Below, piece by piece: positions 2,053-46,165 of a stretch of DNA of 64,000 nucleotides. This stretch comes from Eledone cirrhosa (Eukaryota). Numbering within the stretch: position 1 is the stretch's first letter; every line of letters begins with the position of its first letter. The notes beneath the pieces were generated by a model. It did not search any database and had not been told where the DNA came from. It was given only the letters and a program-made list of their open reading frames with translations. The stretch lies in contig CAXHJY010000151.1 in assembly GCA_964016885.1 (NCBI GenBank), forward strand, positions 1-64,000, read 5' to 3'. Position numbers and translations under genes: made by a program.

Positions 2053-2085
2053 GTCTCTACACTCTCCTTTGGCTCTGCCGCCCAC

Positions 2086-5000: not shown

Positions 5001-5523
5001 CAACTTCCAGAAGTCACTGGCCTGGCAGTGCTACCGAGGGGCTCTACCCGTTCGAGAGAGGCTCTACAGACACGGGCGCCCGGGCAGGGATCCCTCAAAA
5101 AAGATTTGCCCTAGATGCGTGCGTCACGAAGAAACCGTGGCGCACGCATTGGTGCAATGTCCGGGCGTGGCTGATCTGTGGGGCTACGCCGAACAACTGC
5201 TGTCGCGGGTGGCGCCGATTAAATTGACGGCCGAGTCCGTGATGACAATCAAACCGCCTCCCCTCTTCACAAAGGAAGCAAAGGCGGTTTTTCTGTGCGT
5301 AATAGCCATGTTGAAAGAGGTTGTTTGGTGGACACGATTGAAAGGTCTGAGGTCAGGCAACTTCCTCTCTGGCCATAGTCTGGTCTACTTCTTCCGATAT
5401 CACTTCGGAAGAAGGATAAGAATGGAGAGAGAGGTGCTTGGCCACAGGCAGTTTTATGAAAGGTGGGTGATAGTGGCGAGAATGGCTCGTGTAAATGGGC
5501 CTTCTCTGTATACCATCCTGTAG
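2086..5523 (+). CDS. ORF2p: AP-like endonuclease, reverse transcriptase and C-terminal zinc finger (1145 aa)
   Basis: APE motifs LNARGL, ICETR, GDWN, YLDRF, TDH. Linker GPGYWKLN. RT motifs NFRPITLLN, DQSKAFDRV, RQGCPLS, YADD. C-terminal CPRC...ETVAHALVQC. Confidence 0.96.
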   Translation: MDVLRVGCLNARGLGSTWKQAKLLNDLRSCSINVMVICETRISVMRQLAPTFDDFEVHASLCQPGGGGGVVVLMQKHLGLAVQVVHSDPEGRLLVLDVGSSESAALRLVAVYSPFGAERPDFFQRLETFLGTSRSLLLAGDWNDILDARWDYAGACPNRGGCNSLKGLLDRFNLVDRYRLDFPTVPTWTWRNHSGQSRSYLDRFLVRSKDRDILSCPEMRTVGYTDHKLVTCVVNLEKTHRQGPGYWKLNLSLPAKETYRNRISRLVKERLTGAIVNNRWWASLKREIRTESISYSKMLAANRNRNEKELTGKLEEAIKSEDVARVLASRTALNQFFDAKHEGCVIRSKIRALGNEGAKAVGWARVTEAKSGNRSTIRSLQDEDGRVIREPKQMCEAFQKHFARLFGGGEGPGRGVDFGPYLDGLPRLSNKEAESCEGPISADEIGDALSQCSRRKSPGLDGIPYELYLAMPVFFSELLEAVYCNWQQNGRIPCSVAKGVVTLVRKDENKGDSINNFRPITLLNTELKILAKVLAKRLALVVGGLVGDAQTCAIPSRSIHDNLHLMRYIIERVGNKPGFGGALINLDQSKAFDRVDHGYLDAVLAAAGFGPVFRGWITALHSNHICSRIKVNGYLSKPFEITRSIRQGCPLSSLLYVLTLEPLLRKLELLQGIPLEPGLSKAVSAYADDVTVMVSTDSEIEAIGTLLEEYERLSGAKLNREKSIGLQLGTWRGRPMPPDGVVGHWTEGPVKLLGVWFGPDLQVEKNWNEVTNKVFALTQKWAKCKLSLKGRAEVANIYIASVTYYRLTVVPCPKETLTTMERMLFQFLWKKRPPMVRRSICCQQPSKGGLGMPWLMMRRHALRLRHLQVFLTGQPVWAPFVKRAFPRLVSLTELQSWVKQRSGKLGDWHTECAQALRALWQAGRAIGGESTSSFYRGLVASRGDDTLGESLDMEEDELASLFGRTFGPGPMDNFQKSLAWQCYRGALPVRERLYRHGRPGRDPSKKICPRCVRHEETVAHALVQCPGVADLWGYAEQLLSRVAPIKLTAESVMTIKPPPLFTKEAKAVFLCVIAMLKEVVWWTRLKGLRSGNFLSGHSLVYFFRYHFGRRIRMEREVLGHRQFYERWVIVARMARVNGPSLYTIL

Positions 5524-13935: not shown

Positions 13936-16900
13936 TAATAATAATAATAATAATGAAATGATTGTGTACAGTGCTCAGGTGCACTACAACTCATCAAAGG
14001 TGCATGTATAGTACATAGAATAATGTACAAATGTCAGGAAAATAAACAGTGTATGAGTCATGATATAATAACAATAACAATAATGAAATATTGTGCACAG
14101 TGCCCAGGTGCACCACAACCCATCAAAAAAGTGCATGTACAGTACATAGGGCAATGCACAAACATCAGTAAAATGAACAGTGCACACATGTGTGCATGTG
14201 TATGGAAGGGGCACATCAGGTGTAGTTTTGGCGTATTTCGGGAAGCATGAGTGTCTTAAAGGATGCAGTGTCTCGGCAGCTAACAATTGACGCAGGCAGT
14301 TTGTTCCATGTTTCAGCAACTCTGAGCGTGAAAAAATGTCTGCGAAAGTCATGGGAGCTGTGCTGTTTTCTTATCTTGTAGGCATGTCCACGTGTGTTAG
14401 ACACATGGAGATCAAAGAGGCGCTCAGGGTTGCAGTTGGCGAGATGGTTAAAAACTTTGTGGGTATTCACCAAGTCCACTGCCAGATGTCGGAGCTTCAA
14501 TGAATCCATGCCCAGGGAAGCAAGGCGTTCAGAGTATGGTAGGTGTCTGATGGAGGGTATGCGCTTGGTTGCACGTCTCTGAACAGCTTCCAGGAGGTCA
14601 ATGTTCCGAGCAAGATAGGGGTTCCAGACTGATGATGCGAATTCCAAGTGTGGTCGCACCATAGCTGTATACAGTTTTAAATAGATGGCTGGAGAGCGGC
14701 TAACAAAGGTCTTGCTGAGTGATGCCAAGACACCCTCGGCCTTCTTGACAATCTTAGAGACATGCTTTGTCCAACGCAAATCGTTGCCGACAGTAATGCC
14801 CAGGTCACGTTCACAAGAGGACTTTTTGATGTCAGTGTTGTGGAGGGAGTATGTGGACGCTGGATTTTTCCTTCCAAAATGCATGGTGGTACACTTGTCC
14901 ACAGCCAGCTTCAGTTGCCAGTCTGTGATCCATTGCTGCATTGTGTCCAGGTCTGATTTTAGGAAAGAGTTGTAAATTTCAGGATCAGTCCTTTTGATTT
15001 CAAGGTACAGCTTGATGTCATCTGCATATTTTAGTACCGTGGCATTCTGTAAGTTGGCATCTATGTCATTAATATATGCCACAAACAAAAGAGGACCAAG
15101 AACAGATCCCTGTGGTACACCAGATGACATCTCATATGGTGAAGAATGCTGTCCTAGAACCGTGACTACTTTCCTTCGGCTGAGAATGAAGGATTTCAGC
15201 CAGTCGAAAAGATCATCCCTCACACCCATTGCAGAGAGTTTTGCCATAAGTCTTTTGTGTGGCACAGAATTAAAAGCCTTAGCAAAGTCAAGGTAAACAA
15301 CATCCACCCATGAGCCGCTGTCAGTGATCCGGGTGATGTCCTCAAGGAACTCGATAAGCTGATCACAGCAGCTGGAGTTAGGGATAAATCCAAACTGTGA
15401 GGGCCGGATGAGGCTGTGAGAGCTCCAGAAGTTCCAAAGTGTTTCTCTGACACAGGATTCCATCAGTTTGGCCATACAGCTAGTAAGACTGACTGGACGA
15501 TAGTTGACAGGTGACATGCGGTTGCCCTTTTTGAACAGGGGAATGACACTGGCAGTTTTCCACTGCTCCGGAGTAGCACCATTGCTGAGACAGTATTGAA
15601 AGAAAAAAGAAAGCTGGCGCAAAAGGAAATCCCCGCCACGTTTGAGAAGCAGGTATGTCACACCATCAAGACCAGGGGAGGCATAGTTGCGCTTATTCTT
15701 AAGGTGACGTCGCAACATTGCAGGTGTAAATTCCATAGTTGTTATGGAATTTGATGTTAGAGATGGTGGAGATGGTACATTCTGGTTTTCAACAGTAAAA
15801 ATACTTGCATAGCACTCAGCAATGAGTTCTGCGCATTCCTTGGGATCGTCAGTGATCTGGCTTGTGTGGGGATTGCGAAGAGGACCAACTGGAGAGTGAG
15901 GTCTCTGCTTTGAATGAACATATTTCCAGAACACCTTACTGTCAGGATTGGTTGCGATGCACTGTTCAAATTCAAGCACTGCCTTCTTTGTCACTTGCTT
16001 GAGATGGTTAGAAGATTTATTCCGCTTTTTTCTGTTGGCATCTGATCTATGCAGTTTATATTCCCGTTCAGCGTTCCGACGTTCTTTCCTGGCAAGTCGG
16101 ACTGCTGAAGTTTCCCAGATTGCACTTTTGGGGTGGTTATTTTTCCGCTTCCGTGGCACTGATGCTGCACACGCTATCCATATTGAGTCCAGGATGCTCT
16201 GGAGTATAGAGTTCACATCTCCAGAGTTATACATCTCATGCCAGTTTGGGCGCTGTAGCTCAGTGCAGTACAAGTTCCAATCCGCCCTCTTCCAATCAAA
16301 GCAAGCAGATTGGAGATGGCTCTGGTTTTTGTTGCTGCCCTCAAGTGCCAGATTGGCAATGATCATAGCATGATCAGAGTCGCCTAGAGGTTCCTCAGTA
16401 GTACAACTGATAACCACTTCAGGAGTAGTGGTGAAGATCAGGTCCAAAGTGTTGTCACCTCTTGTTGGAGAGGTGACTACTTGTGACCAGTTTGAGTCCA
16501 GCACTAGTTCAAGGAAATCGTTTGCACCCTGTGGCCAACGAAAGGTTTCCCAATCGATCTCAGGATGATTGAAGTCACCTGCAATAAACACATAAGTGGC
16601 TGTTTTCTTGGCAGCAACTCTGAGGATATCGCAAAGCTGTGTGTCCTGATGGTAGTTTGGGGGGCGATAAACAACACCAAGCAGAAGTGTTGACATGGTC
16701 ATACGTATGTCACAGAAAAAAACTTCTTCCTGTGATTCGTTCAAATCAACGCAAGGAATTACCGAAAAGTTTGAACGAACGTAGACCATCACACCACCAC
16801 CACGGCGGTTAATGCGGTCCTTGCGGAAAAGGTTGTACCCAGTAATGGTGAAAACCCCATCACAGAGTAAGGAATGTGCCCATGTTTCCGTGACTGTGAT

Positions 16901-20504: not shown

Positions 20505-21382
20505 ACCTGGCCCTTACCCTAACCCCAACCTCTTTGGTTTTCGTTTTCTCGACGGCTAGCCGCATTTCGTGATCCGCCTTTCGATTGCGCTTCCGTCGCG
20601 GCAAAAGAATTGCCTTTCCAGACCGCCGTCGCCCGACCGGACCCATGATAGAAGACGTTCGTTACCGTTGGAGCAACGCAAATTACTCCTCGGTTGACGC
20701 CAAAAACGAACGCCTTCCCGCCTCGCGCCGCCTTCTCCTCGCCGACCCTCGGCCTCGACGATTAGCCACTTTCCGTCACAGCAGTAGATACGCGTCCGTC
20801 GTAATAGCCGTCATTTTAACGCAGGAGAAACGCCTAATTGCCCTGCACCGCGTTTGACGGCGATCTACGACGGCGACGATGCGCGCACTCTTCCTTGCTG
20901 CGACGAAGGTTTCGGCTTTTCGTCGTGGACCCGGTCAGGTCATGCCGCTGACCTCGCGTTACGGCGACGCGAGAAGACGTTCGTTACCGCTGGAGCAACG
21001 CAAATTACTCCTCGGTTGACGCCAAAAACGAACGCCTCGCGCCGCCGCTTCCTCCTCGGCCTCGACGATTAGCCGCTTTCCGTCACAGCAGTAGATACGC
21101 GTCCATCGTAATAGCCGTCATTTTAACGCAGGAGAAACGCCTTGACGACGATATACGACGGGTCGACGACGCGCGCACTCTTTCTGCTGCGACGAAGGTT
21201 TTGGCTTTTCGTTGTGGACCCGGTCGGGTCATGCCTCTGACCTCGCGTTGCGTCGCCACCGCCGCGGCGGGCTTGGGTTTAGCCGTAGCTACCCTCGTTT
21301 TGCCAACGGCGACGCGAGAAGACGTTCGTTACCGCTGGAGCAACGCAAATTACTCCTCGGATGAGGCCAAAAACGAACGCTG
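20505..21382 (+). repeat. Diverged copies of the rDNA-spacer/ETS-like sequence, without the 18S piece
   Basis: Shares long blocks with 27491-28900, including 3 copies of GACGTTCGTTACCG.TGGAGCAACGCAAATTACTCCTCGG. Preceded by a short CCCTAA-like tract. Copy at ~58327-59204. Confidence 0.9.
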
Positions 21383-27403: not shown

Positions 27404-27490
27404 ACCCTAACCCTAAACCTAACCCCAACTCCAACTCTGACCCTAAACCTAACCCCAACCCCAACCCTAACCCTAACCCTAACCCTAACC
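27404..27490 (+). repeat. Interstitial telomere-like tract, C-strand (CCCTAA/CCCCAA)
   Basis: About 14 hexamers, ending in near-perfect (CCCTAA)n that abuts the 169-bp array. Confidence 0.9.
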
Positions 27491-28580
27491 CACGATAGAA
27501 GACGTTCGTTACCGCTGGAGCAACGCAAATTACTCCTCGGTTGACGCCAAAAACGAACGCCTTCTCGACGGCTAGCCGCATTTCGTGATCCGCCTTTCGA
27601 TTGCGCTTCCGTCGCGGAAAAAGAATTGCCTTTATAGGCCGCCGCCGCCCGACCGGACCCACGATAGAAGACGTTCGTTACCGCTGGAGCAACGCAAATT
27701 ACTCCTCGGTTGACGCCAAAAACGAACGCCTTCTCGACGGCTAGCCGCATTTCGTGATCCGCCTTTCGATTGCGCTTCCGTCGCGGAAAAAGAATTGCCT
27801 TTATAGGCCGCCGCCGCCCGACCGGACCCACGATAGAAGACGTTCGTTACCGCTGGAGCAACGCAAATTACTCCTCGGTTGACGCCAAAAACGAACGCCT
27901 TCTCGACGGCTAGCCGCATTTCGTGATCCGCCTTTCGATTGCGCTTCCGTCGCGGAAAAAGAATTGCCTTTATAGGCCGCCGCCGCCCGACCGGACCCAC
28001 GATAGAAGACGTTCGTTACCGCTGGAGCAACGCAAATTACTCCTCGGTTGACGCCAAAAACGAACGCCTTCTCGACGGCTAGCCGCATTTCGTGATCCGC
28101 CTTTCGATTGCGCTTCCGTCGCGGAAAAAGAATTGCCTTTATAGGCCGCCGCCGCCCGACCGGACCCACGATAGAAGACGTTCGTTACCGCTGGAGCAAC
28201 GCAAATTACTCCTCGGTTGACGCCAAAAACGAACGCCTTCTCGACGGCTAGCCGCATTTCGTGATCCGCCTTTCGATTGCGCTTCCGTCGCGGAAAAAGA
28301 ATTGCCTTTATAGGCCGCCGCCGCCCGACCGGACCCACGATAGAAGACGTTCGTTACCGCTGGAGCAACGCAAATTACTCCTCGGTTGACGCCAAAAACG
28401 AACGCCTTCTCCACGGCTAGCCGCATTTCGTGATCCGCCTTTCGATTGCGCTTCCGTCGCGGAAAAAGAATTGCCTTTATAGGCCGCCGCCGCCGCCCGA
28501 CCGGACCCACGATAGAAGACGTTCGTTACCGCTGGAGCAACGCAAATTACTCCTCGGTTGACGCCAAAAACGAACGCCTT
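27491..28580 (+). repeat. 169-bp GC-rich tandem array (6 full plus 1 partial), rDNA spacer/ETS-like
   Basis: Units start at 27491, 27660, 27829, 27998, 28167, 28336 and 28508 and are nearly identical. Lies ~360 bp upstream of an 18S 5' end. Confidence 0.93.
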
Positions 28581-28938
28581 CCGGTTCGGGCGACGTAAAA
28601 GTCTGTAGCCTTTTCGCCGATCCTCGACGATTATCCGCCTTCCGAACAACCGCCTTTCCGCCGTCACAGCAGTAGGTACTCGTCCGTCGTAATAGCCGTC
28701 ATTTTAATGCAGGAGAAACGCCTAAATGCACTGCGATTGACGACGATCTACGACGCGCTTACTCTTCCTTGCTGCGACGAAGGTTTCGTTCGGCTTTTCG
28801 TCGTGGACCCGGTCAGGTCATGCCGCTGATCTCGCGTTGCGTCGTTACCGCTGGAGCAACGCAAATTACTCCTCGTTTAACGCCAACATCGAACGCGCTT
28901 CGGTTCTCGGTCGTCGTTGTTTTGTTTCGTGCGGAAGA

Positions 28939-29124
28939 TACCTGGGTGATCCTGCCAGTAGTCATATGCTTGTCTCAAAGCTTAAGCCATGCAAGTGGAA
29001 GTTCATGCCGTAAACGAAAATGGTGAAACCGCGAATGGCTCAGGAACCGGATCTAATCCTCGGGACCGTATTCCTCACCGCGAGGAGAGGATAACTGTGG
29101 CAATTCTAGAGCTAATACATGCAA
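28939..29124 (+). rRNA. 18S rRNA 5'-terminal fragment (~185 nt); not a complete gene
   Basis: TACCTGGGTGATCCTGCCAGTAGTCATATGCTTGTCTCAAAG.TTAAGCCATGCA ... GTGAAACCGCGAATGGCTCA ... GGATAACTGTGGCAATTCTAGAGCTAATACATGC matches the universal eukaryotic SSU start. Confidence 0.93.
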
Positions 29125-29130
29125 TTGAGA

Positions 29131-32100
29131 TCGGAGAGGGAGCGATCCGTCTGCTTGATTCCGATAACGAACGAGACATTCGTATCCGAAAGAACGTTTG
29201 TCTGGAAACTGGTGCAGTCAGTGAGTCGAAAAAAAAATATCTCGGTGGTAGTAGCAAATATTCGAACGAGACATTCGTATGCGAAAGAACGTTTGTCGGT
29301 GGTAGTAGCAAATATTCGAACGAGACATTCGTATGCGAAAGAACGTTTGTCGGTGGTAGTAGCAAATATTCGAACGAGACATTCGTATGCGAAAGAACGT
29401 TTGTCTGGAAGTGGCGATCCATGCCCGGTGGATAGTTGGTTCCGGGTTTTACTATGATTGTTGCAAAACAAAAACTTAAAGGGATTGACAGAATTTGCGA
29501 TTCCGGAGAGAGGGCGATCCGTCTGCTTGATTCCGATAACGAACGAGACATTCGTATCCGAAAGAACGTTTGTCTGGAAACTAGTGAGTCAGTGAGTCGA
29601 AAAAAAAATATCTCGGTGGTAGTAGCAAATATTCGAACGAGACATTCGTATGCGAAAGAACGTTTGTCGGTGGTAGTAGCAAATATTCGAACGAGACATT
29701 CGTATGCGAAAGAACGTTTGTCTGGAAGTGGCGATCCATGCCCGGTGGATAGTTGGTTCCGGGTTTTACTATGATTGTTGCAAAACAGAAACTTAAAGGG
29801 ATTGACAGAATTTGCGATTACGGAGAGGGGGCGATCCGTCTGCTTGATTCCGATAACGAACGAGACATTCGTATCCGAAAGAACGTTTGTCTGGAAACTG
29901 GTGAGTCAGTGAGTCGAAAAAAAAATATCTCGGTGGTAGTGGCAAATATTCGAACGAGACATTCGTATGCGAAAGAACGTTTGTCGGTGGTAGTAGCAAA
30001 TATTCGAACGAGACATTCGTATGCGAAAGAACGTTTGTCTGGAAGTGGCGATCCATGCCCGGTGGATAGTTGGTTCCGGGTTTTACTATGATTGTTGCAA
30101 AACAGAAACTTAAAGGGATTGACAGAATTTGCGATTACGGAGAGGGGGCGATCCGTCTGCTTGATTCCGATAACGAACGAGACATTCGTATCCGAAAGAA
30201 CGTTTGTCTGGAAACTGGTGAGTCAGTGAGTCGAAAAAAAAATATCTCGGTGGTAGTAGCAAATATTCGAACGAGACATTCGTATGCGAAAGAACGTTTG
30301 TCGGTGGTAGTAGCAAATATTCGAACGAGACATTCGTATGCGAAAGAACGTTTGTCTGGAAGTTGCGATCCATGCCCTGTGGATAGTTGGTTCCGGGTTT
30401 TACTATGATTGTTGCAAAACAGAAACTTAAAGGGATTGACAGAATTTGCGATTCCGGAGAGGGGGCAATCCGTCTGCTTGATTCCGATAACGAACGAGAC
30501 ATTCGTATCCGAAAGAACGTTTGTCTGGAAACTGGTGAGTCAGTGAGTCGAAAAAAAAAATATCTCGGTGGTAGTAGCAAATATTCGAACGAGACATTCG
30601 TATGCGAAAGAACGTGTGTCGGTGGTAGTAGCAAATATTCGAACGAGACATTCGTATGCGAAAGAACGTTTGTCTGGAAGTGGCGATCCATGCTCGGTGG
30701 ATAGTTGGTTCCGGGTTTTACTATGATTGTTGCAAAACAGAAACTTAAAGGGATTGACAGAATTTGCGATTCCGGAGAGGGGGCGATCCGTCTGCTTGAT
30801 TCCGATAACGAACGAGACATTCGTATCCGAAAGAACGTTTGTCTGGAAACTGGTGAGTCAGTGAGTCGAAAAAAAAATATCTCGGTGGTAGTAGCAAATA
30901 TTAGAACGAGACATTCGTATGCGAAAGAACGTTTGTCGGTGGTAGTAGCAAATATTCGAACGAGACATTCGTATGCGAAAGAACGTTTGTCGGTGGTAGT
31001 AGCAAATATTCGAACGAGACATTCGTATGCGAAAGAACGTTTGTCTGGAAACTGGTGAGTCAGTGAGTCGAAAAAAAAATATCTCGGTGGTAGTAGCAAA
31101 TATTCGAACGAGACATTCGTATGCGAAAGAACGTTTGTCGGTGGTAGTAGCAAATATTCGAACGAGACATTCGTATGCGAAAGAACGTTTGTCTGGAAGT
31201 GGCGATCCATGCCCGGTGGTAGTTGGTTCCGGGTTTTACTATGATTGTTGCAAAACAGAAACTTAAAGGGATTGACAGAATTTGCGATTCCGGAGAGGGG
31301 GCGATCCGTCTGCTTGAATCCGATAACGAACGAGACATTCGTATCCGAAAGAACGTTTGTCTGGAAACTGGTGAGTCAGTGAGTCGAAAAAAAAATATCT
31401 CGGTGGTAGTAGCAAATATTCGAACGAGACATTCGTATGCGAAAGAACGTTTGTCGGTGGTAGTAGCAAATATTCGAACGAGACATTCGTATGCGAAAGA
31501 ACGTTTGTCTGGAAGTGGCGATCCATGCCCGGTGGATAGTTGGTTCCGGGTTTTACTATGATTGTTGCAAAACAGAAACTTAAAGGGATTGACAGAATTT
31601 GCGATTCCGGAGAGGGGGCGATCCGTCTGCTTGAATCCGATAACGAACGAGACATTCGTATCCGAAAGAACGTTTGTCTGGAAACTGGTGAGTCAGTGAG
31701 TCGAAAAAAAAATATCTCGGTGGTAGTAGCAAATATTCGTATGCGAAAGAAAAGATCTCGGTGGTAGTAGCAAATATTCGAACGAGACATTCGTAGGCGA
31801 AAGAAAAATATCTCGGTGGTAGTAGCAAATATTCGAACGAGACATTCGTATTCGAAAGAACGTTTGTCTGGAAGTTGCGATCCATGCCCGGTGGATAGTT
31901 GGTTCCGGGCTTTACTATGATTGTTGCAAAACAGAAACTTAAAGGGATTGACAGAATTTGCGATTCCGGAGAGGGGGCGATCCGTCTGCTTGATTTCGAT
32001 AACGAACGAGACATTCGTATCCGAAAGAACGTTTGTCTGGAAACTGGTGAGTCAGTGAGTCGAAAAAAAAATATCTCGGTGGTAGTAGCAAATATTCGAA

Positions 32101-34170
32101 CGAGACATTCGTATGCGAAAGAACGTTTGTCGGTGGTAGTAGCAAATATTCGAACGAGACATTCGTATGCGAAAGAACGTTTGTCTGGAAGTGGCGATCC
32201 ATGCCCGGTGGATAGTTGGTTCCGGGTTTTACTATGATTGTTGCAAAACAGAAACTTAAAGGGATTGACAGAATTTGCGATTCCAGAGAGAGGGCGATCC
32301 GTCTGCTTGATTCCGATAACGAACGAGACATTCGTATCCGAAAGAACGTTTGTCTGGAAACTGGTGAGTCAGTGAGTCGAAAAAAAAATATCTCGGTGGT
32401 AGTAGCAAATATTCGAACGAGACATTCGTATGCGAAAGAACGTTTGTCTGGAAGTGGCGATCCATGCTCGGTGGATAGTTGGTTCCGGGTTTTACTATGA
32501 TTGTTGCAAAACAGAAACTTAAAGGGATTGACAGAATTTGCGATTCCGGAGAGGGGGCGATCCGTCTGCTTGATTCCGATAACGAACGAGACATTCGTAT
32601 CCGAAAGAACGTTTGTCTGGAAACTGGTGAGTCAGTGAGTCGAAAAAAAAAATATCTCGGTGGTAGTAGCAAATATTCGAACGAGACATTCGTATGCGAA
32701 AGAACGTTTGTCGGTGGTAGTAGCAAATATTCGAACGAGACATTCGTATGCGAAAGAACGTTTGTCTGGAAGTGGCGATCCATGCCCGGTGGATAGTTGG
32801 TTCCGGGTTTTACTATGATTGTTGCAAAACAGAAACTTAAAGGGATTGACAGAATTTGCGATTCCGGAGAGGGGGCGATCCGTCTGCTTGATTCCGATAA
32901 CGAACGAGACATTCGTATCCGAAAGAACGTTTGTCTGGAAACTGGTGAGTCAGTGAGTCGAAAAAAAAAATATCTCGGTGGTAGTAGCAAATATTCGAAC
33001 GAGACATTCGTATGCGAAAGAAAAATATCTCGGTGGTAGTAGCAAATATTCGAACGAGACATTCGTATGCGAAAGAACGTTTGTCGGTGGTAGTAGCAAA
33101 TATTCGAACGAGACATTCGTATGCGAAAGAACGTTTGTCTGGAAGTGGCGATCCATGCCCGGTGGATAGTTGGTTCCGGGTTTTACTATGATTGTTGCAA
33201 AACAGAAACTTAAAGGGATTGACAGAATTTGCGATTCCGGAGAGAGGGCGATCCGTCTGCTAGATTCCGATAACGAACGAGACATTCGTATCCGAGAGAA
33301 CGTTTGTCTGGAAACTGGTGAGTCAGTGAGTCGAAAAAAAAATATCTCGGTGGTAGTAGCAAATATTCGAACGAGACATTCGTATGCGAAAGAAAAATAT
33401 CTCGGTGGTAGTAGCAAATATTCGAACGAGACATTCGTATGCGAAAGAACGTTTGTCTGGAAGTGGCGATCCATGCCCGGTGGATAGTTGGTTCCGGGTT
33501 TTACTATGATTGTTGCAAAACAGAAACTTAAAGGGATTGACAGAATTTGCCATTCCGGAGAGGGGGCGATCCGTCTGCTTGATTCCGATAACGAACGAGA
33601 CATTCGTATCCGAAAGAACGTTTGTCTGGAAACTGGTGAGTCAGTGAGTCGAAAAAAAAATATCTCGGTGGTAGTAGCAAATATTCGAACGAGACATTCG
33701 TATGCGAAAGAACGTTTGTCTGGAAGTGGCGATCCATGCTCGGTGGATAGTTGGTTCCGGGTTTTACTATGATTGTTGCAAAACAGAAACTTAAAGGGAT
33801 TGACAGAATTTGCGATTCCGGAGAGGGGGCGATCCGTCTGCTTGATTCCGATAACGAACGAGACATTCGTATCCGAAAGAATGTTTGTCTGGAAACTGGT
33901 GAGTCAGTGAGTCGAAAAAAAAATATCTCGGTGGTAGTAGCAAATATTCGTATGCGAAAGAAAAGATCTCGGTGGTAGTAGCAAATATTCGAACGAGACA
34001 TTCGTAGGCGAAAGAAAAATATCTCGGTGGTAGTAGCAAATATTCGAACGAGACATTCGTATTCGAAAGAACGTTTGTCTGGAAGTTGCGATCCATGCCC
34101 GGTGGATAGTTGGTTCCGGGCTTTACTATGATTGTTGCAAAACAGAAACTTAAAGGAATTGACAGAATTT
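29131..34170 (+). repeat. Tandem array of 15 rRNA-mosaic units (typically 317 bp, range 263-518) with an internal 54-bp subrepeat
   Basis: Each unit has 18S-like GATTCCGGAGAGGG, ATTCCGATAACGAACGAGAC and GGTTCCGGG...GAAACTTAAAGG.ATTGAC, plus 28S-like ATCTCGGTGGTAGTAGCAAATATTCGAACGAGA. Confidence 0.92.
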
Positions 34171-34194
34171 TCGAATCGACATCAACTCGGCTAC

Positions 34195-34550
34195 GGCTAT
34201 CCCGTCGAGTACGAGAGTATCGCGGGATCAGAGCAACGGTTTGCTAGGCTGCCTCTGAGCGATAACGGCTGAACGCCTCCTCTAAGCCGGAACCCTAGCC
34301 GGACCCGAGTTGTTTTTCGACAAGCGTCTCGACCTTCTTAAGGCCCATGCCTTAGTTTGGCGATTGCCGTCCGTTCGCCGACGGCGGCAGCGTCAGCGGA
34401 AATGCCATTCTGTGACGACTACGACGATTCGTCGTCGTCGTCGTCCATTCGATTTCCTGAAAGAGATAGAGACTAAAGTGATCAAATTGTTCGGAGTTAC
34501 GTGCTTAGTAGAGCAGCTACCACACTGCAATCTATTGAGAGTTTTCTGAC
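34195..34550 (+). rRNA. Diverged 28S rRNA 3'-terminal fragment (sarcin-ricin loop to 3' end)
   Basis: AGTACGAGAG (34208-34217), CTGAACGCCTC..TAAG, and AGAGCAGCTACCACACTGCAATCTATTGA occur in the order expected for the metazoan LSU 3' end. Confidence 0.82.
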
Positions 34551-35574
34551 GAACGATACAATCCGCCCACGTGGCGCCAGAAAGGGAGAAGAAAAGAAAA
34601 GTTAGACGCCGCCGATCGATCGGTTCGTTGTTTTACGTGTACACAGCTTGTGTGTGTGTCTGTATGTGATACAAGCCGCCTATCCGTCTTCCAAGTAAGT
34701 TTTGTGTGTAGACTGCGGAAAGAAATCCAATCCGCCGTCTAGGCGGTTCTGCCGCCGACCCATACTTTTGCGAGTCGCTCCCGGGAAAGACAGGCGGCAA
34801 GACGGCGTGTATACACGACGCCTTCCGTCTTCCGCCTCGAACCCGGGCAAACGTTCCTTTATTCGTCCACGCCTTCCCGCTTCGATCGCGAGAAAGTAAT
34901 CAATCTGTTTTGTGTGTGTGTCTGTGTGTGATACAAATTTGTTTTCTTAATTTGATAACCATGAATTGTTTCAACACCGGCCCTTTTCAGGGCCACTTAT
35001 ATTTTCAATAATCAGTTTAAATGGGTTGCACCGTAGCCACTTGGTAATACACTGCAAATCTCCCGTCAATCTATGAAGGTTTTGTAGTAGATTAGATCAA
35101 AACACAATCAGCAAGACAGTAATGGAATGAATAATATAAACATTTGTTTATAATTAAAGCCTTAAGATGTCCCTCCCTCCCTCCCTTCCTCCCTTCCTTC
35201 CTTCCTTCCTTCCTTCCTTACGATATACACTTTAATAACATTGAAACTTATTTAATAAGTTTAAATTTTAAACACTTTTTATTCAGACGTACCGCGATAA
35301 GTAACTAGATATGTTCTAACGAATAATCCGCGATGTGGCGAGGATTACCGCGATAGGAAATTAGATACGTTCCAAAGAAATATCCGCGAAAAGTGAACCG
35401 CGATATAGCGGGTTCACCAGCCAGTGTATTACTGGTACTTTATTTTATCGACCCCCATAAGGATGAAAGGCAAAGTTAACTGTGCAATAACAAAGGGAGA
35501 TAACCTCGTCTTTTTTTTTTTACGGAGTTATTTCCCTTTAAATTTTATCTATTACTTATGATGATACAATTTAA

Positions 35575-35707: not shown

Positions 35708-35975
35708 GGTCTGAGTTCAAATCACGCCGAGGAGGTTAACTTTGCCTTTCATCCTTACGGGGTCGGTCGGAAAACGAACCATTCCCGGTTCGCTTTCGAA
35801 GCGGGTTTCCGAAAACAGCGCTTCTCTCGACCGGGCCCGTCGTCCGCTCGGCGGTGGTTTTCATCGTCCCAGGCACGGCTAACAGGCGGAGACGGGACAA
35901 ACGCGCGTGTTCCTTTTTTTATCAGCCGCAGCGCCGTTCGTATATATGCTTAGGTTGTTTTTTTTTTAAATATCC

Positions 35976-36190
35976 TAAGTTAAGTTGGGGCTAAGTTAAG
36001 TTGAGGTTAAGTTGAGTTGGGGTTAAGTTAAGTGGGGGTTAAGTTAAGCTGGGGTTAAGTTAAGTTGAGGTTAAGTTAAGTTGGGGTTAAGTCAAGTTGG
36101 GGTTAAGTTAAGTTGGGGTTAAGTTAGGTTGGGGTTAAGTTAGGTTGGGGTTAAGTTAAGTTGGGGTTAAGTTAGGTTGCGGTTAAGTTA
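35976..36190 (+). repeat. G-rich telomere-variant repeat, 16-bp unit (TTAAG TTA[A/G]G TTGGGG)n
   Basis: About 13 units read directly from the sequence. Confidence 0.9.
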
Positions 36191-39100
36191 CATTCGCCGC
36201 CGGACTTCAGCTTCCTCATTTAGCATGGGCAGTTTTTCTTGAAAATCACACCACACACAGCAAATGTGTGTCCGCACATGTACCAGTAATTACAGATCGA
36301 TTCCGGTGAAAATTCACTGAAAACGGGCCATCCGGCCCTGTGCGTCGATCGTGGGCCGGCCGGATGTTGACGGATCGATGTGTAATTAGAAGTACATGTG
36401 CGGACACTCATTGGCTGTGCGTGGTATGCATTTCAGCAAGATATCTCCGTAACATCAAGAGTTATGGCTGTGGAGGCACACCTAGTCAAACGTAAACAAG
36501 GTCTGGAGCGTTTACGCTTCGCGATTTTGTTTACGTTTGACTAGGTGTGCCTCCACAGCCACAACTCTTGATGTTACGGAGATATCTTGCTGAAATGCAT
36601 ACCGCGCACAGCCAATGAGTGTCCGCACATGTACTTCTAATTACACATCGATCCGTCAACATCCGGCCGGCCCACGATCGACGCACAGGGCCGGATGGCC
36701 CGTTTTCAGTGAATTTTCACCGGAATCGATCTGTAATTACTGGTACATGTGCGGAGACACATTTGCTGTGTGTGGTGTGATTTTCAAGAAAAACTGCCCA
36801 TGCTAAATGAGGAAGCTGAAGTCCGCCGGCGAATGGTGTGCTTCGAAGAAAACTAATTCGAAAATGACCGTTTGCAGGCGGAGTAACCTTTTCGATCGTG
36901 GGCCAGCCGCCCGTGGTGGGATCCATCTGTAATTACTGGTACATGTGCGGACATACATTTGCTGTGTGTGGTGTGATTTTCAAGAAGAACTGCCCATGCT
37001 AAATGAGGAAGCTGAAGTCCGCCGGCGAATGGTGTGCTTCGAAGAAAACTAATTCGAAAATGACCGTTTGCAGGCGGGGTAACCTTTTCGATCGTGGGCC
37101 AGCCGCCCGTGGTGGGATCCATCTGTAATTACTGGTACATGTGCGGACACACATTTGCTGTGTGTGGTGTGATTTTCGAGAAAGACTGCCCATGCTAAAT
37201 GAGGAAGCTGAAGTCCGCCGGCGAATGGTGTGCTTCGAAGAAAACTAATTCGAAAATGACTATTTGCCGGCGGAATCACCTTTTCGGTCCTGGTCCGGCC
37301 GGATCTTGCCGGATCGATCGGAAATTTGTGGACCATGTTCGGAAGGCCATTGTGCATGTGTGGTGAAAAAAATTTGTGTCGAAATCTTCTCGGAAAATAA
37401 CGGATCGCCGGCGGAGATTGCCATTTCGATCGTGGGCCGGCCGGATCTTGTCGGATCGATTCGGACATATGTGCATCGTGTTCGCAAGGCCCTTGTCTAT
37501 GTGTGGTGTGATTTTCATAAAGAAATTCCGAAAAACCCAGTTTTAAATCTGATTTCGCCAAAGAATTTTGGCTATCAGATCGGGTTGAAAGGTATGGTTT
37601 CAGGTCGATCTGAAAGTCTAAAATGGAATTCACTCGGTTAGCTAACTATTGATATTTCGGAGATATCTTTCTGAAAATCACACCACACACTCCCAATGAG
37701 TGTCTGCACATGTACCAGTAATTACAGATGGATCCCACCACGGGCGGCCGGCCCACGATCGAAAAGGTTACTCCGAAGCACACCATTCGCCGGCGGAATT
37801 CATTTAGCATGGGCAGTTTTTCTCGAATATCACACCACACACAGCCAATGAGTGTCCGCACATGTACCAGTAATTACAGATGGATCCCACCACGGGCGGC
37901 TGGCCCACGATCGAAAAGGTTACTCCGCCTGCAAACGGTCATTTTCGAATTCGTTTTCTTCGAAGCACACGATTCGCCGGCGGACTTCAGCTGCCTCATT
38001 TAGCATGGGCAGTTTTTCTCGAAAATCACACCACACACAGCAAATGTGTGTCCGCACATGTACCAGTAATTACAGATCGATTCCGGTGAAAATTCACTGA
38101 AAACGGGCCATTCGGCCCTGTGCGTCGATCGTGGGCCGGCCGGATGTTGACGGATCGATGTGTAATTAGAAGTACATGTGCGGACACTCATTGGCTGTGC
38201 GTGGTATGCATTTCAGCAAGATATCTCCGTAACATCAAGAGTTATGGCTGTGGAGGCACACCTAGTCAAACGTAAACAAAATCGCGAAGCGTATACGCTC
38301 CAGAGCTTGTTTACGTTTGACTAGGTGTGCCTCCACAGCCATAACTCTTGATGTTACGGAGATATCTTGCTGAAATGCATACCACGCACAGCCAATGAGT
38401 GTCCGCACATGTACTTCTAATTACACATCGATCCGTCAACATCCGGCCGGCCCACGATCGACGCACAGGGCAGAATGGCCCGTTTTCAGTGAATTTTCAC
38501 CGGAATCGATCTGTAATTACTGGTACATGTGCGGACACACATTTGCTGTGTGTGGTGTGATTTTCACGAAAAACTGCCCATGCTAAATGAGGAAGCTGAA
38601 GTCCGCCGGCGAATGGTGTGCTTCGAAGAAAACTAATTCGAAAATGACCGTTTGCAGGCGGAGTAACCTTTTCGATCGTGGGCCAGCCGCCCGTGGTGGG
38701 ATACATCTGTAATTACTGGTACATGTGCGGACACACATTTGCTGTGTGTGGTGTGATTTTCGAGAAAGACTGCCCATGCTAAATGAGGAAGCTGAAGTCC
38801 GCCGGCGAATGGTGTGCTTCGAAGAAAACTAATTCGAAAATGACTATTTGCCGGCGGAATCACCTTTTCGGTCCTGGTCCGGCCGGATCTTGCCGGATCG
38901 ATCGGAAATTTGTGGACCATGTTCGGAAGGCCATTGTGCATGTGTGATGAAAAAAATTTGTGTCGAAATCTTCTCGGAAAATAACGGATCGCCGGCGGAG
39001 ATTGCCATTTCGATCGTGGGCCGGCCGGATCTTGTCGGATCGATTCGGACATATGTGCATCGTGTTCGCAAGGCCCTTGTCTATGTGTGGTGTGATTTTC

Positions 39101-42100
39101 ATAAAGAAATTCCGAAAAACCCAGTTTTAAATCTGATTTCGCCAAAGAATTTTGGCTATCAGATCGGGTTGAAAGGTATGGTTTCAGGTCGATCTGAAAG
39201 TCTAAAATGGAATTCACTCGGTTAGCTAACTTTTGATATATCGGAGATATCTTTCTGAAAATCACACCACACACTCCCAATGAGTGTCTGCACATGTACC
39301 AGTAATTACAGATGGATCCCACCACGGGCGGCCGGCCCACGATCGAAAAGGTTACTCCGAAGCACACCATTCGCCGGCGGAATTCATTTAGCATGGGCAG
39401 TTTTTCTCGAAAATCACACCACACACAGCCAATGAGTGTCCGCACATGTACCAGTAATTACAGATGGATCCCACCACGGGCGGCTGGCCCACGATCGAAA
39501 AGGTTACTCCGCCTGCAAACGGTCATTTTCGAATTAGTTTTCTTCGAAGCACACCATTCGCCGGCGGACTTCAGCTTCCTCATTTAGCATGGGCAGTTTT
39601 TCTCGAAAATCACACCACACACAGCAAATGTGTGTCCGCACATGTACCAGTAATTACAGATCGATTCCGGTGAAAATTCACTGAAAACGGGCCATTCGGC
39701 CCTGTGCGTCGATCGTGGGCCGGCCGGATGTTGACGGATCGATGTGTAATTAGAAGTACATGTGCGGACACTCATTGGCTGTGCGTGGTATGCATTTCAG
39801 CAAGATATCTCCGTAACATCAAGAGTTATGGCTGTGGAGGCACACCTAGTCAAACGTAAACAAGCTCTGGAGCGTATACGCTTCGCGATTTTGTTTACGT
39901 TTGACTAGGTGTGCCTCCACAGCCACAACTCTTGATGTTACGGAGATATCTTGCTGAAATGCATACCACGCACAGCCAATGAGTGTCCGCACATGTACTT
40001 CTAATTACACATCGATCCGTCAACATCCGGCCGGCCCACGATCGACGCACAGGGCCGGATGGCCCGTTTTCAGTGAATTTTCACCGGAATCGATCTGTAA
40101 TTACTGGTACATGTGCGGACACACATTTGCTGTGTGTGGTGTGATTTTCACGAAAAACTGCCCATGCTAAATGAGGAAGCTGAAGTCCGCCGGCGAATGG
40201 TGTGCTTCGAAGAAAACTAATTCGAAAATGACCGTTTGCAGGCGGAGTAACCTTTTCGATCGTGGGCCAGCCGCCCGTGGTGGGATCCATCTGTAATTAC
40301 TGGTACATGTGCGGACACTCATTGGCTGTGTGTGGTGTGATTTTCGAGAAAGACTGCCCATGCTAAATGAGGAAGCTGAAGTCCGCCGGCGAATGGTGTG
40401 CTTCGAAGAAAACTAATTCGAAAATGACTATTTGCCGGCGGAATCACCTTTTCGGTCCTGGTCCGGCCGGATCTTGCCGGATCGATCGGAAATTTGTGGA
40501 CCATGTTCGGAAGGCCATTGTGCATGTGTGATGAAAAAAATTTGTGTCGAAATCTTCTCGGAAAATAACGGATCGCCGGCGGAGATTGCCATTTCGATCG
40601 TGGGCCGGCCGGATCTTGTCGGATCGATTCGGACATATGTGCATCGTGTTCGCAAGGCCCTTGTCTATGTGTGGTGTGATTTTCATAAAGAAATTCCGAA
40701 AAACCCAGTTTTAAATCTGATTTCGCCAAAGAATTTTGGCTATCAGATCGGGTTGAAAGGTATGGTTTCAGGTCGATCTGAAAGTCTAAAATGGAATTCA
40801 CTCGGTTAGCTAACTTTTGATATATCGGAGATATCTTTCTGAAAATCACACCACACACTCCCAATGAGTGTCTGCACATGTACCAGTAATTACAGATGGA
40901 TCCCACCACGGGCGGCCGGCCCACGATCAAAAAGGTTACTCCGAAGCACACCATTCGCCGGCGGAATTCATTTAGCATGGGCAGTTTTTCTCGAAAATCA
41001 CACCACACACAGCCAATGAGTGTCCGCACATGTACCAGTAATTACAGATGGATCCCACCACGGGCGGCTGGCCCACGATCGAAAAGGTTACTCCGCCTGC
41101 AAACGGTCATTTTCGAATTAGTTTTCTTCGAAGCACACCATTCGCCGGCGGACTTCAGCTTCCTCATTTAGCATGGGCAGTTTTTCTCGAAAATCACACC
41201 ACACACAGCAAATGTGTGTCCGCACATGTACCAGTAATTACAGATCGATTCCGGTGAAAATTCACTGAAAACGGGCCATTCTGCCCTGTGCGTCGATCGT
41301 GGGCCGGCCGGATGTTGACGGATCGATGTGTAATTAGAAGTACATGTGCGGACACTCATTGGCTGTGCGTGGTATGCATTTCAGCAAGATATCTCCGTAA
41401 CATCAAGAGTTATGGCTGTGGAGGCACACCTAGTCAAACGTAAACAAGCTCTGGAGCGTATACGCTTCGCGATTTTGTTTACGTTTGACTAGGTGTGCCT
41501 CCACAGCCACAACTCTTGATGTTACGGAGATATCTTGCTGAAATGCATACCACGCACAGCCAATGAGTGTCCGCACATGTACTTCTAATTACACATCGAT
41601 CCGTCAACATCCGGCCGGCCCACAATCGACGCACAGGGCCGGATGGCCCGTTTTCAGTGAATTTTCACCGGAATCGATCTGTAATTACTGGTACATGTGC
41701 GGACACACATTTGCTGTGTGTGGTGTGATTTTCACGAAAAACTGCCCATGCTAAATGAGGAAGCTGAAGTCCGCCGGCGAATGGTGTGCTTCGAAGAAAA
41801 CTAATTCGAAAATGACCGTTTGCAGGCGGAGTAACCTTTTCGATCGTGGGCCAGCCGCCCGTGGTGGGATACATCTGTAATTACTGGTACATGTGCGGAC
41901 ACACATTTGCTGTGTGTGGTGTGATTTTCGAGAAAGACTGCCCATGCTAAATGAGGAAGCTGAAGTCCGCCGGCGAATGGTGTGCTTCGAAGAAAACTAA
42001 TTCGAAAATGACTATTTGCCGGCGGAATCACCTTTTCGGTCCTGGTCCGGCCGGATCTTGCCGGATCGATCGGAAATTTGTGGACCATGTTCGGAAGGCC

Positions 42101-45100
42101 ATTGTGCATGTGTGGTGAAAAAAATTTGTGTCGAAATCTTCTCGGAAAATAACGGATCGCCGGCGGAGATTGCCATTTCGATCGTGGGCCGGCCGGATCT
42201 TGTCGGATCGATTCGGACATATGTGCATCGTGTTCGCAAGGCCCTTGTCTATGTGTGGTGTGATTTTCATAAAGAAATTCCGAAAAACCCAGTTTTAAAT
42301 CTGATTTCGCCAAAGAATTTTGGCTATCAGATCGGGTTGAAAGGTATGGTTTCAGGTCGATCTGAAAGTCTAAAATGGAATTCACTCGGTTAGCTAACTA
42401 TTGATATATCGGAGATATCTTTCTGAAAATCACACCACACACTCCCAATGAGTGTCTGCACATGTACCAGTAATTACAGATGGATCCCACCACGGTCGGC
42501 CGGCCCACGATCGAAAAGGTTACTCCGAAGCACACCATTCGCCGGCGGAATTCATTTAGCATGGGCAGTTTTTCTCGAAAATCACACCACACACAGCCAA
42601 TGAGTGTCCGCACATGTACCAGTAATTACAGATGGATCCCACCACGGGCGGCTGGCCCACGATCGAAAAGGTTACTCCGCCTGCAAACGGTCATTTTCGA
42701 ATTAGTTTTCTTCGAAGCACACCATTCGCCGGCGGACTTCAGCTTCCTCATTTAGCATGGGCAGTTTTTCTTGAAAATCACACCACACACAGCAAATGTG
42801 TGTCCGCACATGTACCAGTAATTACAGATCGATTCCGGTGAAAATTCACTGAAAACGGGCCATTCGGCCCTGTGCGTCGATCGTGGGCCGGCCGGATGTT
42901 GACGGATCGATGTGTAATTAGAAGTACATGTGCGGACACTCATTGGCTGTGCGTGGTATGCATTTCAGCAAGATATCTCCGTAACATCAAGAGTTATGGC
43001 TGTGGAGGCACACCTAGTCAAACGTAAACAAGGTCTGGAGCGTTTACGCTTCGCGATTTTGTTTACGTTTGACTAGGTGTGCCTCCACAGCCACAACTCT
43101 TGATGTTACGGAGATATCTTGCTGAAATGCATACCGCGCACAGCCAATGAGTGTCCGCACATGTACTTCTAATTACACATCGATCCGTCAACATCCGGCC
43201 GGCCCACGATCGACGCACAGGGCCGGATGGCCCGTTTTCAGTGAATTCTCACCGGAATCGATCTGTAATTACTGGTACATGTGCGGAGACACATTTGCTG
43301 TGTGTGGTGTGATTTTCAAGAAAAACTGCCCATGCTAAATGAGGAAGCTGAAGTCCGCCGGCGAATGGTGTGCTTCGAAGAAAACTAATTCGAAAATGAC
43401 CGTTTGCAGGCGGAGTAACCTTTTCGATCGTGGGCCAGCCGCCCGTGGTGGGATCCATCTGTAATTACTGGTACATGTGCGGACATACATTTGCTGTGTG
43501 CGGTGTGATTTTCAAGAAGAACTGCCCATGCTAAATGAGGAAGCTGAAGTCCGCCGGCGAATGGTGTGCTTCGAAGAAAACTAATTCGAAAATGACCGTT
43601 TGCAGGCGGGGTAACCTTTTCGATCGTGGGCCAGCCGCCCGTGGTGGGATCCATCTGTAATTACTGGTACATGTGCGGACACACATTTGCTGTGTGTGGT
43701 GTGATTTTCGAGAAAGACTGCCCATGCTAAATGAGGAAGCTGAAGTCCGCCGGCGAATGGTGTGCTTCGAAGAAAACTAATTCGAAAATGACTATTTGCC
43801 GGCGGAATCACCTTTTCGGTCCTGGTCCGGCCGGATCTTGCCGGATCGATCGGAAATTTGTGGACCATGTTCGGAAGGCCATTGTGCATGTGTGGTGAAA
43901 AAAATTTGTGTCGAAATCTTCTCGGAAAATAACGGATCGCCGGCGGAGATTGCCATTTCGATCGTGGGCCGGCCGGATCTTGTCGGATCGATTCGGACAT
44001 ATGTGCATCGTGTTCGCAAGGCCCTTGTCTATGTGTGGTGTGATTTTCATAAAGAAATTCCGAAAAACCCAGTTTTAAATCTGATTTCGCCAAAGAATTT
44101 TGGCTATCAGATCGGGTTGAAAGGTATGGTTTCAGGTCGATCTGAAAGTCTAAAATGGAATTCATTCGGTTAGCTAACTATTGATATATCGGAGATATCT
44201 TTCTGAAAATCACACCACACACTCCCAATGAGTGTCTGCACATGTACCAGTAATTACAGATGGATCCCACCACGGGCGGCCGGCCCACGATCGAAAAGGT
44301 TACTCCGAAGCACACCATTCGCCGGCGGAATTCATTTAGCATGGGCAGTTTTTCTCGAAAATCACACCACACACAGCCAATGAGTGTCCGCACATGTACC
44401 AGTAATTACAGATGGATCCCACCACGGGCGGCTGGCCCACGATCGAAAAGGTTACTCCGCCTGCAAACGGTCATTTTCGAATTCGTTTTCTTCGAAGCAC
44501 ACGATTCGCCGGCGGACTTCAGCTGCCTCATTTAGCATGGGCAGTTTTTCTCGAAAATCACACCACACACAGCAAATGTGTGTCCGCACATGTACCAGTA
44601 ATTACAGATCGATTCCGGTGAAAATTCACTGAAAACGGGCCATTCGGCCCTGTGCGTCGATCGTGGGCCGGCCGGATGTTGACGGATCGATGTGTAATTA
44701 GAAGTACATGTGCGGACACTCATTGGCTGTGCGTGGTATGCATTTCAGCAAGATATCTCCGTAACATCAAGAGTTATGGCTGTGGAGGCACACCTAGTCA
44801 AACGTAAACAAGCTCTGGAGCGTATACGCTTCGCGATTTTGTTTACGTTTGACTAGGTGTGCCTCCACAGCCACAACTCTTGATGTTACGGAGATATCTT
44901 GCTGAAATGCATACCACGCACAGCCAATGAGTGTCCGCACATGTACTTCTAATTACACATCGATCCGTCAACATCCGGCCGGCCCACGATCGACGCACAG
45001 GGCCGGATGGCCCGTTTTCAGTGAATTTTCACCGGAATCGATCTGTAATTACTGGTACATGTGCGGACACACATTTGCTGTGTGTGGTGTGATTTTCACG

Positions 45101-46165
45101 AAAAACTGCCCATGCTAAATGAGGAAGCTGAAGTCCGCCGGCGAATGGTGTGCTTCGAAGAAAACTAATTCGAAAATGACCGTTTGCAGGCGGAGTAACC
45201 TTTTCGATCGTGGGCCAGCCGCCCGTCGTGGGATACATCTGTAATTACTGGTACATGTGCGGACACACATTTGCTGTGTGTGGTGTGATTTTCGAGAAAG
45301 ACCGCCCATGCTAAATGAGGAAGCTGAAGTCCGCCGGCGAATGGTGTGCTTCGAAGAAAACTAATTCGAAAATGACTATTTGCCGGCGGAATCACCTTTT
45401 CGGTCCTGGTCCGGCCGGATCTTGCCGGATCGATCGGAAATTTGTGGACCATGTTCGGAAGGCCATTGTGCATGTGTGATGAAAAAAATTTGTGTCGAAA
45501 TCTTCTCGGAAAATAACGGATCGCCGGCGGAGATTGCCATTTCGATCGTGGGCCGGCCGGATCTTGTCGGATCGATTCGGACATATGTGCATCGTGTTCG
45601 CAAGGCCCTTGTCTATGTGTGGTGTGATTTTCATAAAGAAATTCCGAAAAACCCAGTTTTAAATCTGATTTCGCCAAAGAATTTTGGCTATCAGATCGGG
45701 TTGAAAGGTATGGTTTCAGGTCGATCTGAAAGTCTAAAATGGAATTCACTCGGTTAGCTAACTATTGATATTTCGGAGATATCTTTCTGAAAATCACACC
45801 ACACACTCCCAATGAGTGTCTGCACATGTACCAGTAATTACAGATGGATCCCACCACGGGCGGCCGGCCCACGATCGAAAAGGTTACTCCGAAGCACACC
45901 ATTCGCCGGCGGAATTCATTTAGCATGGGCAGTTTTTCTCGAAAATCACACCACACACAGCCAATGAGTGTCCGCACATGTACCAGTAATTACAGATGGA
46001 TCCCACCACGGGCGGCTGGCCCACGATCGAAAAGGTTACTCCGCCTGCAAACGGTCATTTTCGAATTCGTTTTCTTCGAAGCACACGATTCGCCGGCGGA
46101 CTTCAGCTGCCTCATTTAGCATGGGCAGTTTTTCTCGAAAATCACACCACACACAGCCAATGAGT
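36191..46165. repeat. CpG-rich palindromic satellite: 1584/1780-bp units, 196-bp subrepeat, six dyad centres
   Basis: Mirror-image ORF pairs place centres at 36513, 38293, 39877, 41461, 43045 and 44825. Arms are ~480 bp around a 27-bp spacer. Confidence 0.95.

Follow-up and report, generated by a model that had tools for sequence, protein, structure and literature searches.

The window analysed in this study is a 64,000-nt stretch at the start of contig C178 (CAXHJY010000151.1) of the 3.0-Gb Eledone cirrhosa assembly GCA_964016885.1, and it contains a rearranged copy of 45S ribosomal DNA (rDNA), hereafter called the cassette. Repeats were detected using Tandem Repeats Finder (TRF), ribosomal segments were identified by profile searches with the Rfam small-subunit (SSU) and large-subunit (LSU) families, and all parts were aligned to the canonical 45S rDNA of the same genome. 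The reference unit, located at C4:352.07 Mb, is ordinary and complete, with an 18S gene of 2,871 nt, a 5.8S gene, and a 28S gene of 6,206 nt. The canonical 18S fits published cephalopod primers (PMC8074623) more closely than any of 9 outgroup rDNAs, in keeping with a cephalopod host. C-numbers denote contigs of this assembly and L-numbers denote genomic loci extracted from it.

An earlier note, made from the letters alone, had described a hollowed-out rDNA transcription unit with a true 18S start and 28S end around a tandem array. TRF, Rfam and the alignment to the genome's own rDNA placed every part where it had been reported, in the same order and on the + strand (Table 1), and the two rRNA ends and the trailer with its duplicated motif were confirmed as such. 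The leader was indeed derived from 5′ external transcribed spacer (ETS) sequence, although the approximately 810 nt next to 18S have been lost; it contains an extra piece of ETS repeat at 28842–28901 and differs from canonical ETS by 30 substitutions in 449 aligned positions (28405–28853). The 18S end showed 221 matches and 8 substitutions in 229 aligned positions (3.5%). In the 28S end, 34 of 413 aligned positions differed (8.2%), deletions of 26, 33, and 15 nt were present, and the sarcin-ricin loop was altered. Overall, the retained parts were 92–96% identical to canonical 45S rDNA, and the termini kept amount to approximately 570 nt of the 10,368-nt canonical 18S–28S span. No match to 5.8S or to the second internal transcribed spacer (ITS2) was found in the cassette by Rfam search or by alignment to canonical rDNA, as had been claimed; for ITS1 the claim does not hold, as 19 nt of it are carried in the array.

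Table 1. Parts of the rDNA-derived cassette in the window
Feature	Coordinates	Strand	Evidence or remarks
Degenerate (CCCTAA)n tract, at the expected place of the rDNA promoter	27404..27491	+	TRF period 6, 14.7 copies
169-bp repeat, 6.5 copies	27488..28581	+	TRF, 99% matches
5′ ETS remnant (leader)	28582..28938	+	lacks ~75 nt and ~810 nt of canonical ETS
18S rRNA 5′ end, ~nt 1–189, with T8G and other changes	28939..29129	+	Rfam SSU, E 4e-4
Array of 317-bp units, 15 unit starts	29132..34167	+	TRF and alignment to canonical rDNA
28S rRNA 3′ end, model positions 3005–3399	34179..34563	+	Rfam LSU, 61.6 bits, E 7e-13
3′ ETS/intergenic spacer remnant (trailer), duplicated TG motif	34564..34936	+	homologous to sequence 3′ of canonical 28S
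Flanking dispersed palindromic repeat (its centre plus a single arm), histone H4 3′ stem-loop at 34972–34996	34935..35007	+	Rfam Histone3, 36.4 bits

The array had been regarded as a new, repetitive cargo. Alignment showed that it is not foreign: 242 of the 317 nt of one unit (76%) match the genome's own 18S, ITS1, and 28S without gaps, with 0 to 2 mismatches per piece. Seven donor pieces of 11–39 nt were mapped, all in the sense orientation and in an order scrambled relative to the gene: the 18S donors lie at nt 575–592, 1839–1892, 1972–1982, and 2038–2076, and the remaining donors are the ITS1 segment and two sites in 28S. A 54-bp subrepeat inside the unit consists of one 28S piece and the ITS1 piece, and length variants near 263, 359, and 371 bp occur beside the 317-bp form. 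Approximately 75 nt of the unit had no donor, and part of this may be an inverted ITS1 piece. Microhomology was observed at the joins, with 5, 10, and 6 nt shared at three of them and TTCG at a fourth; random pairs of positions reach overlaps of 4, 5, 6, and 10 nt in 2.1%, 0.7%, 0.24%, and 0.007% of cases, respectively. The segment at 29493–29508, just before the 18S helix-12 piece, is similar to the promoter region of canonical units, and an 11-nt word is common to that region and the helix; the 317-bp unit may hold a scrap of promoter. Protein coding was rejected, as the open reading frames (ORFs) of the repeats track the repeat and the 148-aa ORF had no match in Pfam.

The cassette is not unique to the window. 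The assembly contains 59 exact copies of the 18S-array junction and 61 of the array-28S junction, and reversed-pattern controls yielded none. They recur in units of approximately 38 kb, a possibility that the earlier note had considered: 43 of the 5′ and 44 of the 3′ junctions form a head-to-tail series spanning 1.73 Mb of C28, with a median spacing of 37.8 kb, and the others were located to C178, C1185, four small contigs, and, once, C18. The C18 copy is a rearranged macro-unit (L045, C18:6.73 Mb) in which the 28S end is truncated and followed by a restart, and at L051 (C28:125.97 Mb) repeated inverted-repeat blocks occupy the expected place of a cassette. The eight cassettes first extracted all had the repeats, leader, 18S end, and array, and the 28S end lay within the extracted stretch in five of them. 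The number of 169-bp copies was 3–7 in most extracted cassettes and 11 in L050, a cassette whose leader and 18S have been entirely lost. Array length ranged from 735 to 19,021 nt (median 5,798 nt in 57 cassettes), a 26-fold spread. The unit motif had 928 matches in the assembly, and none of the 100 matches listed was on C1–C17 or C19–C27. The junction of the 26-nt deletion in 28S was found 61 times, exclusively at cassettes; since all 61 cassettes share it, they have a single origin.

Copy number was estimated from X1, a public sequencing run. Contigs of X1 covered the leader, the ETS deletion, and the 18S-array junction at depths of 3,614, 3,693, and 3,770 with 0 differences, and one contig ran from the last array unit into 28S. 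Canonical rDNA contigs in the same run had depths of 3,633 and 4,526, giving cassette to canonical ratios of 1.02 and 0.83. Reproduction of the junctions at rDNA-like depth indicates that the cassette is not a misassembly and that in this sample its copies are about equal in number to those of true rDNA. In favour of an artefact, X1 may be the very sample that was assembled; the unit was also present in a second sample (X6, described below), and copies vary in unit number and arrangement. The chance that the cassette is an assembly artefact is accordingly negligible. The junction counts and the X1 contigs bear out the proposal of a parallel pseudo-rDNA array, neither a single pseudogene nor an error of assembly.

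The array sits on a different chromosome from the assembled canonical units. On C28, no 5.8S was present among the scored matches and no canonical 18S marker was found. In the genome, 29 of the 40 scored 5.8S candidates were matches, and canonical 45S units were located on C4, C12, C25, and C6; the canonical 18S marker had 21 matches in the assembly. Canonical rDNA on C1–C25 amounts to approximately 21–29 scattered units, at most 3 in a row and many with the promoter motif, and the assembly showed no long array of canonical units. True rDNA is probably under-assembled.

Leader and 18S were identical in 10 of 11 copies, and the parts of the macro-unit not derived from rDNA (satellites and pieces of long interspersed nuclear elements, LINEs) were similarly uniform, mostly 99.5–100%. 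As the rDNA part is no more uniform than the rest, no extra constraint on it is evident; this suggests that the entire unit was recently amplified or homogenised, and not that the rDNA part was under selection.

In canonical units, the motif TATATAGGG was observed in a conserved context approximately 1.77 kb before 18S, and it recurred in every ~700-bp repeat of the intergenic spacer (IGS). Such a layout, with a start motif recurring within the IGS, is that of a gene promoter plus spacer promoters. The gene-proximal motif had 27 matches in the genome and lay approximately 1.6–2.3 kb upstream of 17 of the 21 canonical 18S copies. It resembles reported TATAGGG-type start sites (PMC8928438 and PMC6730533); from its position, its duplication in the IGS, and this likeness, we infer that it is the RNA polymerase I (Pol I) promoter. 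None of the 27 matches was on a cassette-bearing contig, and no homology to the promoter region was found in the window or in any extracted cassette locus. Homology of the cassette begins at 27488, where the (CCCTAA)n tract joins the ETS repeat via a shared ACCC, and directly after the tract it corresponds to canonical positions some 180–200 nt downstream of the start motif. The 169-bp repeats, 90–95% identical to these positions and each bearing the cassette-specific TTTATAGG, are therefore an amplified canonical 5′ ETS repeat. They had been described as homogeneous spacer repeats; the homogeneity held (99%), but they map inside the 5′ ETS, downstream of the start motif, and not in spacer upstream of the promoter. 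At the other end, homology of the trailer stops approximately 60–100 nt short of the first spacer-promoter motif. The (CCCTAA)n junction could stem from a break that was healed as a telomere, but the window has tracts of this kind at other places too.

By these results, the cassette is probably a promoterless, recently amplified macrosatellite derived from rDNA, which arose by microhomology-mediated deletion and template switching and then spread neutrally or selfishly; the option of a selfish rDNA derivative, raised in the earlier note, fits. One orphaned 45S copy would have lost its promoter, with a telomere-like tract taking its place, and repeated microhomology-mediated deletions and template switches would have removed nearly the whole interior, leaving the rRNA patchwork. 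Unequal exchange would then have amplified the patchwork at three nested scales, namely the 54-bp subrepeat, the 317-bp unit, and the ~38-kb macro-unit, the last of which includes pieces of transposons and further satellites as well. In this way the macrosatellite could have become nearly as numerous as true rDNA while spreading as a neutral or selfish repeat. The cassette descends from the species' own rDNA, is amplified in tandem apart from intact rDNA, and has lost coding capacity, as do rDNA-derived satellites. Like functional 45S rDNA, it forms a homogeneous head-to-tail array; the promoter and the complete 18S, 5.8S, and 28S with ITS1 and ITS2 are missing. Descent from the genome's own rDNA, the mosaic make-up, the microhomologies, the single origin, the tandem amplification, and the lack of the start motif are established by the data, and the mode of repair, the silence, and the absence of a function are inferred.

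Several observations weigh against this interpretation. Two of the six joins measured show a 1-nt overlap and a 2-nt gap, respectively. Six of the seven donors fall in the pan-eukaryote conserved core, with mean conservation of 0.59–0.93 as scored on 17 rDNA loci from metagenomes, each 5.4 kb or longer, where 26–31% of 20-nt background windows pass a conservation of 0.5–0.6. Enrichment for the core gave P values of 0.010 (Fisher) and 0.004 (binomial), or 0.023 and 0.013 without the donor that had served as outgroup search motif; the test is post hoc, and the unmatched bases of the unit could be diverged pieces of variable regions. This bias is the main feature that the satellite interpretation leaves unexplained. 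The idea that donors were chosen for low GC or weak folding received no support (P 0.24 for GC and 0.30 for DNA fold energy). In addition, each 169-bp repeat has gained TATAGG (in six repeats, 27633–28478), outside the canonical upstream context, and T8G extends the predicted helix between 18S and box A of the species' own U3 from 7 to 10 bp (−17.0 versus −14.9 kcal/mol). In X6, a public run from a second sample of the same species whose profile was read as RNA (18S at 3,903x and an ETS-18S contig at 212x), the unit reached 114x, equal to approximately 7x per cassette and at most ~3.5% of the pre-rRNA (ETS) level. X6 was the single RNA-like run examined, and its library type is unrecorded.

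Most of these observations would suit a transcribed cassette, in which a re-created TATAGG start or read-through yields a non-ribosomal RNA that titrates small nucleolar ribonucleoproteins (snoRNPs) or assembly factors, or gives rise to small RNAs; the sense orientation of every mapped donor agrees with this, and the histone stem-loop, in sense and directly past the trailer in tandem copies, could end such an RNA without polyadenylation. Evidence from X6 is limited to contigs, from which neither strand nor RNA ends can be read, and many RNAs of this kind would be lost from a poly(A) library. The leader of cassette type reached at most 3.6x, and the 18S alleles were all canonical, with the cassette type absent. 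The ratio of ~3.5% per cassette, compared with ~1 in DNA, fits DNA carry-over or weak transcription, and the unit signal in X6 is indistinguishable from DNA carry-over. Among RNA-labelled public runs, none contained more than 0.05 of the stretch's words, and the unit folded no better than its shuffles (z −0.27). Promoter homology is likewise absent from the window and the extracted cassette loci, as noted above. The stem-loop was rejected as a dedicated 3′ end, being part of a dispersed palindromic repeat, both arms of which carry the 3′ untranslated region (UTR) and stem-loop of histone H4, with the H4 gene in L052 as the source; its motif had 129 matches, many in inverted pairs, including L059, L062, and many sites at C18:4.9–12.7 Mb. 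A functional transcript is thus quite improbable, and most likely the cassette is not transcribed at all or hardly so. The earlier proposal of a Pol I-transcribed RNA keeping its processing ends was not supported, given contigs devoid of the start motif, the loss of most of the 5′ ETS, and a 28S end that has internal deletions and a changed sarcin-ricin loop; in the RNA-like run, cassette-type 18S alleles were absent and the unit stayed at or below ~3.5% of the pre-rRNA level per cassette, although a non-polyadenylated, unstable, or tissue-limited RNA would escape such a search.

Candidate snoRNA contacts were also considered. One 9-nt complement of the U3 hinge in canonical ETS is absent from the cassette; approximately 0.5 such sites are expected by chance, and no weight was given to it. 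SNORD24, searched as a check of the snoRNA decoy idea, had no match in the genome, but the control likewise matched nowhere. U3 genes (L064–L067) gave 15 matches, six of them clustered at C7:44.21–44.23 Mb.

Runs from ten other organisms shared 0.21–0.28 of the stretch's words, and the species' own canonical rDNA shares 0.096 of its distinct 31-mers. In the two of these organisms examined, the unit occurred at 2.6–17x with 0–1 differences, and other 18S-like contigs reached 13,500x and 372,000x. Conservation of the unit in these two was rejected, as trace depth and near-identical sequence were read as carry-over.

A different origin was considered for the mosaic, in which a retrotransposon reverse transcriptase (RT) jumped between pre-rRNA fragments and the product entered a deleted rDNA copy, where it was amplified. 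Such jumps would fit pieces that share one strand but do not follow the gene order, protein-protected core fragments might account for the conservation bias, and the window contains intact LINE ORFs. Chimeras of LINE-1 and 28S are mostly sense according to PMC13174262, where their median length is 269 nt, against 11–39 nt for the pieces here. No LINE is attached to the mosaic, the frame includes IGS-type DNA, and the possible inverted ITS1 piece points to template switching on DNA. Dispersed copies were absent from C1–C17 and C19–C27 among the matches listed, and each of the 61 3′ junctions falls within the C28 array, an unplaced contig, or the single macro-unit copy on C18, unlike the dispersed insertions of an rRNA retroposon. 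This origin is possible but unlikely.

The array may alternatively act as DNA, as a promoterless pseudo-nucleolus organiser region (pseudo-NOR), nucleolar tether, or pairing site that would bind rDNA factors via its ETS repeats and rRNA-gene segments. Engineered arrays binding UBF and the IGS pairing sites of Drosophila are the source of this concept, and by analogy the architecture of the cassette is compatible with a pseudo-NOR. Its copy number close to that of canonical rDNA, its tandem promoterless state on a separate chromosome, and the two independent amplifications of an ETS repeat within the macro-unit (20538–21380 and 27488–28581) would favour such a role. Against this, rDNA makes up only part of a 38-kb unit rich in junk, and its uniformity does not exceed that of the remainder; a role as DNA is very unlikely. 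It is rather improbable that, in a broader form of the two functional ideas, the locus, as numerous as true rDNA, is retained as a promoterless shadow of rDNA, a multivalent decoy of conserved rRNA segments working either through low-level or tissue-limited RNA that titrates snoRNPs and ribosome-assembly factors or gives rise to rRNA-matching small RNAs, or through DNA as a nucleolar tether or sink for rDNA factors.

Known rDNA-derived satellites stem mostly from spacers, and a monomer made of an IGS subrepeat is usual in plants, though not universal. The monomers of the cassette come from 5′ ETS and from 18S, ITS1, and 28S, not from an IGS subrepeat. Its direct ancestor is the species' own canonical 45S rDNA, with which it shares the order of parts and a similar tandem spacing and copy number, and from which it differs in the loss of the start motif and 5.8S. 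The IGS-derived satellite of tomato (PMC2679016) is likewise tandem, descended from 45S, and amplified by recombination, with expansion of subrepeats and loss of rRNA coding; its monomer is an IGS subrepeat and its coding sequence was eliminated, whereas the cassette keeps both rRNA ends, has lost the IGS promoter repeats, and is filled with a patchwork of coding sequence and ITS1. A proposed mega-satellite of Capsicum (PMC13655049) resembles the cassette in forming large amplified blocks of partial rDNA, coding included, outside active NORs; its monomer fragments are described there as larger and still unresolved, and neither a monomer of scrambled short fragments nor an array nested at three levels is mentioned. 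The frog satellites PcP190 and 219A (PMC12054243) also carry rRNA-gene sequence in an animal satellite monomer, but they derive from a single 5S donor and have no bracketing 45S ends. In SINE28 (PMC10946416) and the 28S/LINE-1 chimeras (PMC13174262), sense rRNA fragments are reused in repeated DNA as well; these are dispersed and hold one rRNA segment, in contrast to a tandem cassette with many donors and spacer DNA. A search of the open-access literature revealed no description of such an architecture, nor of such an array in a cephalopod. The retained rRNA termini, the multi-donor monomer of short fragments, and the three nested scales are new features.

The cassette gives a view at base resolution of an rRNA gene that collapsed into a satellite of scrambled conserved rRNA and reached the copy number of real rDNA. 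Approximately 930 assembled units carry near-perfect conserved segments of 18S and 28S, and approximately 60 copies carry the 18S 5′ and 28S 3′ ends. In this species, such copies can inflate estimates of rDNA copy number, attract universal primers as well as rDNA probes, and be mistaken for variants of rRNA or for small RNAs derived from it. Should a transcript or a role in the nucleolus be found, it would be a new mode of rDNA reuse.

Other elements were identified in the macro-unit. Each macro-unit has a second, independently rearranged 5′ ETS remnant (20538–21380 and 58360–59202), preceded by a short telomere-like tract and devoid of the start motif; one X6 contig crosses its end. Past the cassette, 207 nt from a variable region of 28S (35770–35976) differ from canonical rDNA by 3 substitutions in 195, and because of this low divergence the piece is younger than the cassette. 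It is followed by a 16-bp telomere-like repeat (35976–36190) and an array of ~1,584-bp units at 36191–46162, which has long inverted repeats and 196-bp subrepeats, is present in most extracted macro-units, and could form hairpin RNA; an Rfam search over this array returned one chance match (E 0.71). The window also contains a two-ORF LINE at 175–5523 on the + strand, with an open endonuclease/RT ORF of 1,145 aa, and an RT ORF of 857 aa at 14216–16789 on the − strand, an identical copy of which was found in L042 on C28.

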